From: Escherichia coli
GTDB taxonomy: Bacteria; Pseudomonadota; Gammaproteobacteria; Enterobacterales; Enterobacteriaceae
Length of the DNA: 64,000 nt
NCBI RefSeq assembly: GCF_048403405.1
Contig: NZ_CP183129.1
Reading direction: 5' to 3' (one strand)
Shown in pieces: positions 3,001 to 6,000 of this stretch (position 1 is the first letter of the stretch; every line of letters starts with the position of its first letter). A program made the position numbers.

Positions 3001-6000
3001 CAGTACCATTGCCCAGTCGCTCCAGCCAGCCACGACTAAAACGCAGGTGATAACGCGCTTCTTTGATTGCTTTGGCAGAAATCGCCGCCAGTTGCGGATC
3101 ACGGCTTTCCATCAGACGGGTAAAGAGCGCCACATGCCATGCATCGATGAAATACTGACGTGCAATGGTGTCGGCAAAATTGCCGTTTGGTTGTTCAACC
3201 AACAATAAGTTGCTGAACTGGCGCTCGTCTCGGGTGAAGGCCAGGGTATCTTCATCGCCTTCTCCCGCTAATTCAGCGGCATACGATAAGAAGTTGCGTG
3301 CCTGACCTAATAAATCGAGGCCAATGTTTGCCAGTGCGAGATCGATTTCCAGTTCCGGTGCGTGACCGCACCATTCACCCAACCGCTGGGAGAGCACCAG
3401 GCAGTTATCGCCCAGGCGCAAGGTGTAAGCCGTTAACTGATTCATTTCCGACCTCACATGTGCTCAATGCCATCAGGGATGGTGTAAAACGTTGGATGGC
3501 GATAGACCTTGCTTTCAGCCGGATCAAAAAATTCACCGCGTTCTTCCGGTTGCGAGGCAACAATTTCACTCGCCTTCACCACCCAAATTGAACATCCTTC
3601 GCTACGACGGGTATAAGCATCACGGGCATTTTCCAGTGCCATCCGCTCATCGGCAGCATGTAAACTGCCAACATGGCGGTGTGATAAGCCCTGTTTGCCA
3701 CGCACGAAAACTTCGTATAACGGCCAGTAAACATTACTCATTTTGAAACTCCTTATGCGACCTTACAGGCATGTTGTTTTTGTGCATGGGCCAGCGCAGC
3801 TTCCCGTACCCAGGTACCTTCTTCCCAGGCTTTACATTTGGCGTCGAGCCGCTCCTGATTACAAATTCCGCGACCGTTTATCACTTCGTTAAACTCCTGC
3901 CAGTCGATCTCACCAAAGCGGTAGTGACCGCTTTCAGTATCAAAATGCAGATCCGGGTCAGGAACGGTCATACCGAGCATTTCAACCTGTGGAACGGTGT
4001 TATCCACGAAACGCTGGCGGAGTTCGTCGTTGGTGAAACGTTTGATTTTCCAGGCGAGACTTCTGGCGCTGTTTGGCGAGTTATCATCGTTTGGCCCGAA
4101 CATCATTAAGGCTGGCCACCAGAAACGGTTAATGGCGTCTTGCAACATCTGCTTTTGAGCTTCGCTGCCCTGCGCCAGTGCCATGCAGGCTTCAAACCCC
4201 TGACGCTGGTGAAAACTCTCTTCTTTGCAGATTTTCACCATTGCTCTGGCATACGGGCCATAAGAAGTGCGGCATAACGCCACCTGATTGACGATCGCTG
4301 CGCCATCCACCAGCCAGCCGATAACACCGATATCAGCCCAACTCAATGTCGGATAATTAAAGATGGAGGAATATTTCATCCGTCCGTCGAGCATTTTTTG
4401 GTAGATGTCTTCTCTGGCACAGCCCAGTGTTTCGGCGGCGCTATAGAGATACAGACCATGACCGGCTTCATCCTGCACTTTGGCTAACAGAATGGCTTTA
4501 CGCCGCAAGGTTGGTGCGCGAGTGATCCAGTTACCTTCAGGCAACATACCCACAATCTCGGAGTGCGCATGCTGCCCAATCTGGCGGATCAATGTCTTTC
4601 GGTAAGCATCGGGCATCCAGTCCTGCGGCTCGATAGCCGTTTCCTGGGCTATCCGTTGCTCAAAGCGTTCTTCTTGGGTCACGTCATCACCTTTACGATT
4701 CCAGTTTTCGTGATTTAATTAAAAACACGAATCACGTTGTTTTATGAAAGTTACACAATGGTTAACTAAAATCACAAATTTTGTATGTTTGAACTGTGAC
4801 GAATTTCGCACCCTATTTTTATAAATCATTATTTATCAGTGCATTAATGTTTTTCGCAGTTGCTATACAGATCGCATAGTTAACATTTCGTTAAAAGACC
4901 ACTTGCTTTTTATGATTCGCGATTTAACTATTAGCAACAGAAATGTGAAACATCTGGAGAGTAGCGATGCAGCAGTTAGCCAGTTTCTTATCCGGTACCT
5001 GGCAGTCTGGCCGGGGCCGTAGCCGTTTGATTCACCACGCCATTAGCGGCGAGGCGTTATGGGAAGTGACCAGTGAAGGTCTTGATATGGCGGCTGCCCG
5101 CCAGTTTGCCATTGAAAAAGGTGCCCCCGCCCTCCGCGCTATGACCTTTATCGAACGTGCGGCGATGCTTAAAGCGGTCGCTAAACATCTGCTGAGTGAA
5201 AAAGAGCGTTTCTATGCTCTTTCTGCACAAACAGGCGCAACGCGGGCAGACAGTTGGGTTGATATTGAAGGTGGCATTGGGACGTTATTTACATACGCCA
5301 GCCTCGGTAGCCGGGAGCTGCCTGACGATACGCTGTGGCCGGAAGATGAATTGATCCCCTTATCGAAAGAAGGTGGATTTGCCGCGCGCCATGTACTGAC
5401 CTCAAAGTCAGGCGTGGCAGTGCATATTAACGCCTTTAACTTCCCCTGCTGGGGAATGCTGGAAAAGCTGGCACCAACGTGGCTGGGCGGAATGCCAGCC
5501 ATCATCAAACCTGCCACCGCGACTGCCCAACTGACTCAGGCGATGGTAAAATCAATTGTCGATAGTGGTCTTGTTCCCGAAGGCGCAATTAGTCTGATCT
5601 GCGGTAGTGCGGGCGACTTGTTGAATCATCTGGACAGCCAGGATGTGGTGACTTTCACGGGCTCTGCGACGACCGGACAGATGCTACGTGTTCAGCCAAA
5701 TATCGTCGCCAAATCTATCCCCTTCACCATGGAAGCTGATTCCCTGAACTGCTGCGTACTGGGCGAAGATGTCACCCCGGATCAACCGGAGTTTGCACTG
5801 TTTATTCGTGAAGTTGTGCGTGAGATGACCACAAAAGCCGGGCAAAAATGTACGGCAATCCGGCGGATTATTGTGCCGCAGGCATTGGTTAATGCTGTCA
5901 GTGATGCTCTGGTTGCGCGATTACAGAAAGTCGTGGTCGGTGATCCTGGGCAGGAAGGCGTGAAAATGGGCGCACTGGTAAATGCTGAGCAGCGTGCCGA

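Follow-up and report, generated by a model that had tools for sequence, protein, structure and literature searches.

The 284-bp spacer at positions 4683-4966 of the window, the whole 64,000-nt (64-kb) stretch of Escherichia coli DNA analysed here, separates the divergent genes paaA and paaZ and is bounded exactly by their two starts, as befits the divergent control region that an earlier note on this DNA had placed there. The paaA open reading frame occupies 3753..4682 on the minus strand, its GTG start having 4682 as first base, and paaZ occupies 4967..7012 on the plus strand from an ATG. The locus is a 100% match to E. coli genomes that carry paaA and paaZ annotation, RefSeq gives the same two starts in K-12 and in strain 4621, which has no difference over 851 bp, and Pfam identifies PaaA_PaaC in the paaA product and Aldedh and MaoC in the paaZ product. 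The repressor gene paaX lies outside the window; in a strain that matches the query without a difference it is found 3' of paaK, and its product carries PaaX, PaaX_M and PaaX_C domains.

The use of GTG by paaA, which the same note had pointed out, is borne out by agreement between the open reading frame call, the RefSeq annotation and conservation. This codon (4680..4682, minus strand) is the first start codon of the 3753..4682 frame after the in-frame stop, and the Shine-Dalgarno sequence AAGGTG (4688..4693, minus strand), with a mean identity of 0.96 across 26 other genomes, stands 5 nt before it, such that translation of paaA would begin at the GTG. At the aligned position, 25 of 26 other Enterobacteriaceae genomes have GTG, a count that takes in Kluyvera ascorbata, whose GTG is 3 nt upstream of the compared slice, with TTG (1) and ATG (1) as the exceptions; paaA starts with ATG in more distant Enterobacterales. 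On the other side, the paaZ Shine-Dalgarno sequence GGAGAG (4956-4961, plus strand) precedes an ATG (4967-4969) that is present in 28/28 sequences.

We consider it very likely that 4683-4966 is the E. coli region that holds the divergent paaZ and paaA promoters, Pz and Pa, under the control of PaaX and CRP. The divergent Pa and Pz promoters of the paa cluster of E. coli W and K-12 were reportedly described by Ferrandez, Garcia and Diaz in 2000. Compared with K-12 Pa/Pz, this is the same locus with the same 284-bp length and 9 SNPs in the spacer, all of which lie outside the PaaX half-site hexamers, the CRP half-sites and the predicted promoter hexamers; the A at 4802, a G in K-12, lies within the CRP spacer. 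This control region is already known, and its agreement with the published picture was judged from a review, from SELEX and ChIP-seq work and from comparative genomics. By genomic SELEX, the maoC(paaZ)-paaA spacer has just one CRP site (PMC3105977), ChIP-seq in ETEC finds a CRP peak at the paaZ/paaA spacer (PMC4287617), a RegulonDB-derived table lists CRP(+), IHF(+) and PaaX(-) for paaABCDEFGHIJK (PMC6469107), and reviews state that PaaX binds Pa and Pz in vitro and is released by phenylacetyl-CoA (PMC9493321). The earlier note's judgment that PaaX and CRP control here is known and brings no novelty fits these four sources, and a textbook-level catabolic control region has little discovery value.

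Start sites and promoter hexamers were deduced from conservation. For Pa, this approach gives a putative -10 hexamer TAACTT (4748..4753, minus strand; identity 0.99 across genera), a start at about 4741 and, by position, a putative -35 hexamer TTGTGA (4772..4777, minus strand), whose TTG is invariant in the alignment and which is separated from the -10 by an 18-bp spacer. A generic sigma-70 scan of the sequence calls neither the Pa nor the Pz promoter and returns one match (4744-4772, plus strand), at chance level. Upstream of Pa, a CRP-like TGTGA-N6-TCGCA element was said to lie between the PaaX-like sites, and we find it at 4795..4810 (TGTGAcgaattTCGCA), centred at 4802.5. Its core matches to TGTGA-N6-TCACA number 9/10 here and 8-10/10 in 27 related sequences. 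The site is present also in Serratia and Providencia, with half-site identities of 1.00 and 0.88, compared to 0.26 across the 6-bp spacer. The exact 16-mer gives no match in a full-text literature search. CRP cores with no more than one mismatch are not rare alone, with 2 in 64 kb against 1.9 expected; the significance of this site comes from its conservation and position. The distance from the CRP centre to the first base of TAACTT is 49.5 bp in 28/28 sequences; with the hexamer taken as -12 to -7, the centre would be at -61.5, a class I position relative to the predicted Pa start. At lac P1, as at other class I CRP-dependent promoters, CRP is centred at -61.5. Pa would resemble lac P1 in combining a 16-bp TGTGA-N6-TCNCA site centred at -61.5, as counted here from a predicted start, with a weak core promoter, and would differ from it in being additionally gated by a repressor downstream of +1.

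We weighed a second candidate, in which CRP, instead of binding 4795-4810, occupies the 16-mer that the ETEC ChIP-seq study reported (GTTAAGTAAAATCACA in H10407 and K-12; GTTAACTAAAATCACA at 4761-4776 of the window), which overlaps the putative Pa -35. This 16-mer is the MEME-predicted site of the paaZ/paaA peak (PMC4287617), has a perfect TCACA half and lies in a block with an identity of 0.81. However, it matches only 7/10 core positions, compared to 9/10 at 4795-4810, its TCACA half reads CCCAA in most genera, and its centre would fall at about -27.5, which is not an activating position; if CRP instead binds at 4795-4810, the block around the 16-mer is conserved because the Pa core promoter lies there. 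The ChIP table coordinates are 192 to 230 bp off the NC_017633.1 motif centres for three control peaks, and the two candidates give +187.5 and +221.5; the ChIP data thus fit both CRP candidates, since both offsets are within the approximate control-peak range of +190 to +230 bp. We regard CRP binding at 4761-4776 in place of 4795-4810 as improbable, and the 16-mer published as the motif of this peak is probably the wrong one.

Between the predicted Pa promoter and the paaA ribosome-binding site lies the predicted PaaX operator of Pa (4696..4734, minus strand), identified by conservation and by the published consensus, in which TGATTC (4734..4729) and GAATCG (4701..4696) are separated by 27 bp. 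It would extend from about +8 to +46, ending just before the AAGGTG Shine-Dalgarno (4693..4688). The E. coli PaaX site is given as TGATTC(N27)GAATCA (Kim et al. 2004, quoted in PMC9493321); relative to this consensus, the spacing is N27 at Pa, N26 at a third copy (Px, TGATTC-N26-GAATCG, over the paaX start codon of strain 4621) and N28 at Pz, and each distal hexamer has one mismatch, such that at Pa TGATTC is a full match and GAATCG matches GAATCA at 5/6 positions. A perfect GAATCA, with N28, is found at Pa in most other Enterobacteriaceae. A search for TGATTC-N26-28-GAATCR returns 1 match in 64 kb against 0.07 expected, and the sole match is the Pa operator. The TGATTC/GAATCR pair is present at N27 or N28 in 28/28 Enterobacteriaceae sequences, with intervening bases that vary freely, and at N26-28 in 16 genomes of Providencia, Xenorhabdus, Serratia and relatives. 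In the cross-genus alignment of 26 other genomes, the Pa half-sites have identities of 1.00 and 0.85, compared to 0.32 for the spacer; across the PaaX sites, half-sites are invariant and spacers fall to about 0.3 identity. PaaX boxes of similar sequence are said to have been reported in the styrene and paa promoters of Pseudomonas sp. Y2 by del Peso-Santos et al. in 2006, which concerns the same repressor family in another organism. Two further matches in the window are best explained by chance: the PaaX-like TGATTCGCG at 9972-9980 is within feaB and has no partner half-site, and TGATTC-N27-GCATCA at 37825-37863 is inside a coding open reading frame.

The earlier note had instead assigned PaaX at Pa to a 28-nt inverted repeat with TGATTC/GAATCA half-sites, placed immediately upstream of the paaA Shine-Dalgarno. 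The repeat itself exists, as CGTGATT-N14-AATCACG at 4709..4736, where it overlaps the promoter-proximal PaaX half-site, but it has no independent support. The hexamer occurs in just one of its arms, as GAATCA at 4729-4734 (TGATTC on the minus strand); the corresponding bases of the second arm are TGATTT. Nor is the repeat immediately upstream of the Shine-Dalgarno: 15 bases separate it from AAGGTG, and these hold the overlooked half-site GAATCG (4701..4696, minus strand). Were this dyad the functional operator, the half-sites touched by a PaaX dimer would be some 18-21 bp from each other. The perfect 7-bp arms in the window, the presence of the dyad also in Citrobacter sp. R56, its location within the stretch expected under PaaX, and an inner GAATC-like repeat at N17 in several other genera all speak for such an arrangement. 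Against this, when the 284 bp are shuffled with their dinucleotides preserved, 60% of the shuffles contain one or more perfect 7-bp inverted repeats whose spacer is 0-30, which is chance level; the inner arm has an identity of 0.31, which is background when compared to 0.32 for the spacer; and the T at 4714 that completes this arm is an A in 8/8 other E. coli strains sampled, including K-12, giving the broken arm CGTGAAT. The perfect dyad arises from the alleles T 4714 and G 4736 of this strain, while the outer N27/28 pair is found in 28/28 sequences and fits the published consensus. We find it very improbable that the dyad is the functional operator, and on sequence grounds the predicted PaaX operator of Pa is TGATTC/GAATCG across 27 bp, not the 28-nt repeat. 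An RNA role for the dyad in the putative paaA leader was also considered and rejected (fold z = +0.63 relative to shuffles; no Rfam match at E <= 1).

At Pz, the PaaX-like motif said to precede paaZ is readily found: TGATTCGCGAT occupies 4913-4923, within a stretch (4909-4923) that matches the 15-mer WWTRTGATTCGYGWT at every position. Two such 15-mer boxes occur with no more than one mismatch, both in the 284-bp spacer, where 0.25 are expected in 64 kb. The PaaX operator of Pz predicted by conservation (4909..4952, plus strand) consists of the box TTTATGATTCGCGAT (4909-4923), whose TGATTC occupies 4913-4918, and of GAAACA (4947-4952), with 28 bp between the two hexamers, and is recovered by a relaxed operator scan. 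Identity is 1.00 for TGATTC, 0.80 for the distal hexamer and 0.25 for the DNA between them; the distal half-site is degenerate, being GAAACA here (5/6 match) and GTAACA or GAACCA in other genomes. The putative Pz -35 is TTGCTT (4903..4908, plus strand; identity 0.85), 17 bp from a conserved AACTAT (4926..4931, plus strand; identity 0.91) that by its position would be the -10, with a start at about 4938. The operator would then extend from about -25 to +15, overlapping the core promoter, with TGATTC between the conserved -35 and -10. According to a review, both promoters are repressed by PaaX by mechanisms that differ between them, PaaX competing with RNA polymerase at Pz (PMC9493321), and an operator placed over the Pz core promoter fits this competition.

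The best match to the IHF consensus in the spacer is TATCAGTGCATTA (4834..4846, plus strand), which has one mismatch to WATCAANNNNTTR and an A/T-rich upstream flank and lies at about -99 from both predicted starts. Its position is kept only in AT-rich lineages, with a perfect TAAGTGCTTGATA in Pluralibacter gergoviae, and the site is absent from the GC-rich spacer versions of Enterobacter, Leclercia and Lelliottia. The IHF(+) listing for the paaA operon (PMC6469107) may act through 4834-4846.

These features suggest how the region might work. PaaX would recognize two inverted 6-bp half-sites about three helical turns apart and, from its position downstream of the predicted Pa start, may act there after RNA polymerase binding, e.g., as a roadblock or at the step of promoter escape; at Pz, TGATTC between the -35 and -10 and the weaker GAAACA at about +10 would lead to exclusion of RNA polymerase. 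Phenylacetyl-CoA, according to the literature, would release PaaX. Pa, with its poor -35 and 18-bp spacer, would be aided by cAMP-CRP at -61.5 through class I activation, and probably also by IHF near -99 in AT-rich lineages. That these motifs are instead chance matches in an AT-rich spacer, with no regulatory function in this strain, has next to no prospect of being right: counted singly in 64 kb, the CRP core and the 9-mer TGATTCGYG occur about as often as chance predicts, but the motifs co-occur within one 284-bp spacer, their sequence and spacing are strictly kept in more than 40 genomes with diverged flanking DNA, and regulation of the paa locus by PaaX and CRP is documented (PMC9493321, PMC6469107, PMC3105977). 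The gain is a coordinate-level map for this strain, with PaaX pairs at N27 (Pa) and N28 (Pz) and a CRP geometry, -61.5 from the predicted start, that is invariant in 28 sequences. The two-half-site, three-turn PaaX operator is kept across Enterobacterales and bears on a PaaX dimer spanning about 33 bp; our search for a structure of a PaaX-DNA complex found none, with PDB 8A39 as the only close match.

A further conserved block (4870..4896), with an identity of 0.74 compared to 0.34 for the neighbouring middle segment, includes at 4880-4894 the palindrome TTAAC-N5-GTTAA, roughly -58 to -44 from the predicted Pz start, and its TTAAC does not vary across 13 genera. A second conserved element with no factor assigned in the literature seen is 4754-4771, the spacer within the Pa core promoter, which contains GTTAAC. 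It is conceivable, if rather unlikely, that 4870-4896 and 4754-4771 mark an undescribed regulator or a sequence-specific UP element common to the divergent paa promoters of Enterobacterales. As an IHF site, 4870-4896 is unconvincing, as the best matches there carry 2 mismatches. Three other readings of this block were weighed by eye: a TyrR box, an UP element, and a CRP half-site, which is TGTGATC in other genera and TGCGATC here and lacks a conserved second half. A related block, TTTAACAAA...AAACA, is found in Serratia, Providencia and Xenorhabdus.

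We find that window positions 4683-4966 are the already known Pa-Pz region, controlled by the repressor PaaX and the activator CRP (and also by IHF), where Pa and Pz are the inferred promoters of paaA and paaZ; the PaaX sites, the CRP site, secondary literature and comparative genomics all support this identification, which the earlier note had proposed. The predicted PaaX operator at Pa, on the other hand, is to be corrected to TGATTC-N27-GAATCG (4696-4734). The only long ORFs bordering the spacer are paaA (3753..4682, minus strand, 309 aa, GTG start) and paaZ (4967..7012, plus strand, 681 aa, ATG start), whose products match PaaA_PaaC and Aldedh plus MaoC_dehydratase in Pfam, respectively. 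Because the RefSeq starts of both genes in strain 4621, identical over the query, and in K-12 MG1655 are exactly the window ORF starts, 4683-4966 is the exact 284-bp paaA-paaZ spacer. An 851-bp query around it has matches in 3131 of the 5426 complete E. coli genomes searched, several at 100% identity, with paaA and paaZ annotated beneath the match in E. coli genomes; the K-12 spacer differs from that of the window at nine positions. Three of the 3131 genomes carry the copy on a plasmid. Spacer identity to the window allele spans 92.5%-100% among E. coli and is >=99% in only 15 genomes; the most divergent E. coli copy, that of HS-02 (NZ_CP172818.1), lacks paaA/paaZ annotation at the match and departs in sequence where the paaA Shine-Dalgarno and GTG are expected, suggesting that this paa locus may be degraded or rearranged.

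The GTG start reported for paaA (4682..4680, minus strand) holds up, as it is the first start codon in frame, lies 5 nt from an AAGGTG Shine-Dalgarno, is annotated in RefSeq and is kept in 25 of 26 other Enterobacteriaceae genomes, the exceptions being Buttiauxella izardii (TTG) and Rosenbergiella (ATG); the start is ATG in Providencia, Xenorhabdus and Serratia. Scanning for PaaA in one genome per species gives 80 loci, and paaA and paaZ are divergent in all Enterobacterales, Acinetobacter and Psychrobacter loci of that set. An alignment of the spacer from 26 Enterobacteriaceae genomes, the window and K-12 yields an identity to the window of 0.57 for the whole spacer and 0.34 for its variable middle segment.

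The sequence of the Pa operator region in the paaA direction is caacgTGATTCgtgtttttaattaaatcacgaaaactgGAATCGtaaaggtgatgacGTG. It contains TGATTC (4734..4729), 27 nt and GAATCG (4701..4696) on the minus strand, an arrangement missed earlier that agrees with the E. coli PaaX site TGATTC(N27)GAATCA of Kim et al. 2004, as quoted in a review (PMC9493321). TGATTC-N26-28-GAATCR occurs once in the 64-kb window (0.07 expected), and TGATTC-N27-GAATC[A/G] or TGATTC-N28-GAATC[A/G] lies upstream of paaA in 28/28 sequences. Identity is 1.00 for both TGATTC hexamers and 0.85 for the Pa distal hexamer, where the sole change is G to A at the last base, compared with 0.32 for the operator spacer; a perfect TGATTC-N26-28-GAATCA stands at the equivalent place in 16 Providencia, Xenorhabdus, Serratia and related genomes. 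The 28-nt inverted repeat that had been put forward instead does exist (CGTGATT, 4709-4715; 14 nt; AATCACG, 4730-4736), but its left arm reads TGATTT rather than TGATTC, it ends 15 nt before the paaA Shine-Dalgarno rather than next to it, and 60% of dinucleotide-preserving spacer shuffles contain an equally good repeat. Its inner arm (4709-4715) has an identity of 0.31, and position 4714 is A (CGTGAAT) in all eight other E. coli strains sampled over the identity range, so the perfect dyad is peculiar to the lineage of the window. The conserved operator is thus best read as the outer pair, TGATTC-N27-GAATCG, with the dyad probably incidental. Some genera (5 loci) carry a third hexamer, GAATCA or GAATCT, at N17 from the TGATTC upstream of paaA, 11 bp or one helical turn ahead of the distal half-site.

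On the paaZ side, the motif described ahead of the gene, TGATTCGCGAT, is present at 4913-4923 (plus strand) within a perfect match (4909-4923) to the 15-mer WWTRTGATTCGYGWT, which we take to be the consensus of the PaaX literature. A one-mismatch copy of this 15-mer lies at 4724-4738 on the minus strand, and these two, both inside the spacer, are the only matches at <=1 mismatch in 64 kb, where 0.25 are expected. A relaxed scan extends the Pz site to a candidate operator of TGATTC (4913-4918), 28 bp and GAAACA (4947-4952). Px, the promoter of paaX, has reported autoregulation (PMC9493321), and the paaK-paaX spacer of the strain identical over the query contains TGATTC-N26-GAATCG across the paaX ATG, which would fit. 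Two further matches, an isolated PaaX-like TGATTCGCG at 9972-9980 in the feaB coding sequence and TGATTC-N27-GCATCA at 37825-37863 in ORF 36488..37933, lack a proper partner or promoter context and are attributed to chance. Outside Enterobacteriaceae (Providencia, Xenorhabdus, Serratia), TGATAC replaces TGATTC on the paaZ side; Acinetobacter and Psychrobacter have GATAC...GTATC repeats upstream of paaA and no TGATTC boxes, suggesting that their operator may differ.

The CRP-like TGTGA-N6-TCGCA recorded earlier is found at 4795-4810 with 9/10 core positions, and its half-sites show identities of 1.00 and 0.88 vs 0.26 for the 6 bp between them. For Pa, we propose TAACTT (4753..4748, minus strand, identity 0.99) as the -10 and the conserved TTG-led TTGTGA (4777..4772), 18 bp upstream, as the -35; in 28/28 sequences, 49.5 bp separate the CRP centre from the base at which TAACTT begins. 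With TAACTT at -12 to -7, transcription would start near 4741, placing CRP at -61.5 and the PaaX operator at about +8 to +46. A CRP position of -61.5 is canonical for class I. For Pz, the conserved TTGCTT (4903-4908) and AACTAT (4926-4931), 17 bp apart on the plus strand, would put one PaaX half-site inside the -35/-10 interval and the partner half-site near +10. This asymmetry appears in line with the review's account that PaaX is a competitor of RNA polymerase at Pz and Px but works in another way at Pa (PMC9493321). A generic promoter scan called neither inferred promoter, an Rfam search gave no family match, and the inferred paaA leader folds no better than shuffled sequence.

By genomic SELEX, the maoC(paaZ)-paaA spacer contains just one CRP site (PMC3105977). 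The paaZ/paaA peak in ChIP-seq of ETEC H10407 was assigned the MEME-predicted site GTTAAGTAAAATCACA (PMC4287617), corresponding to window 4761-4776. The two candidates lie 187.5 and 221.5 bp from the ChIP table coordinate, comparable to the offsets of three other peaks from their motif centres in NC_017633.1 (192.5, 196.5 and 229.5 bp), so the ChIP data do not choose between them. Conservation, match (9/10 vs 7/10) and position (-61.5 vs about -27.5) favour 4795-4810 as the probable site. The 'peak centre' coordinates in Table 1 of PMC4287617 fall ~190 to 230 bp below the NC_017633.1 motif positions at 4/4 sites checked, suggesting that coordinates shifted from one genome version to another.

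In a table drawn from RegulonDB, the regulators given for paaABCDEFGHIJK are CRP(+), IHF(+) and PaaX(-) (PMC6469107). The best match to WATCAANNNNTTR, TATCAGTGCATTA at 4834-4846 (one mismatch), is ~99 bp away from either inferred transcription start, with IHF-like sequence at the aligned position in several AT-rich lineages, and we infer that the documented IHF effect may act through it. Enterobacter, Leclercia, Lelliottia and Silvania have GC-rich DNA of equal length in place of the AT-rich middle (4811-4869) that holds this site in E. coli; the whole spacer still measures 282-288 bp.

Two conserved blocks are the sole unexplained features of the region. One, 4870-4896 upstream of the inferred Pz -35, has an identity of 0.74 vs ~0.34 for adjoining DNA and holds the palindrome TTAAC-N5-GTTAA (4880-4894); Serratia, Providencia and Xenorhabdus carry a related block, TTTAACAAA...AAACA. 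The element at 4870-4896 is possibly a UP element, an IHF site or the target of another regulator. The other, the 18-bp Pa -35/-10 spacer (4754-4771), is unusually conserved (0.79) and carries an invariant TTAAC within GTTAAC (4761-4766), a hexamer that recurs 118 bp away in the Pz-side block. Elsewhere in the window, a near-consensus CRP site, CGTGAACCGGGTCACA, lies at 35137-35152 between divergent ORFs 34094..35002 (minus strand) and 35163..36488 (plus strand); the same 16-mer is found between abgA and abgR in NC_017633.1 and is among the ChIP-seq CRP sites of PMC4287617, where it is labelled ycjZ/mppA.
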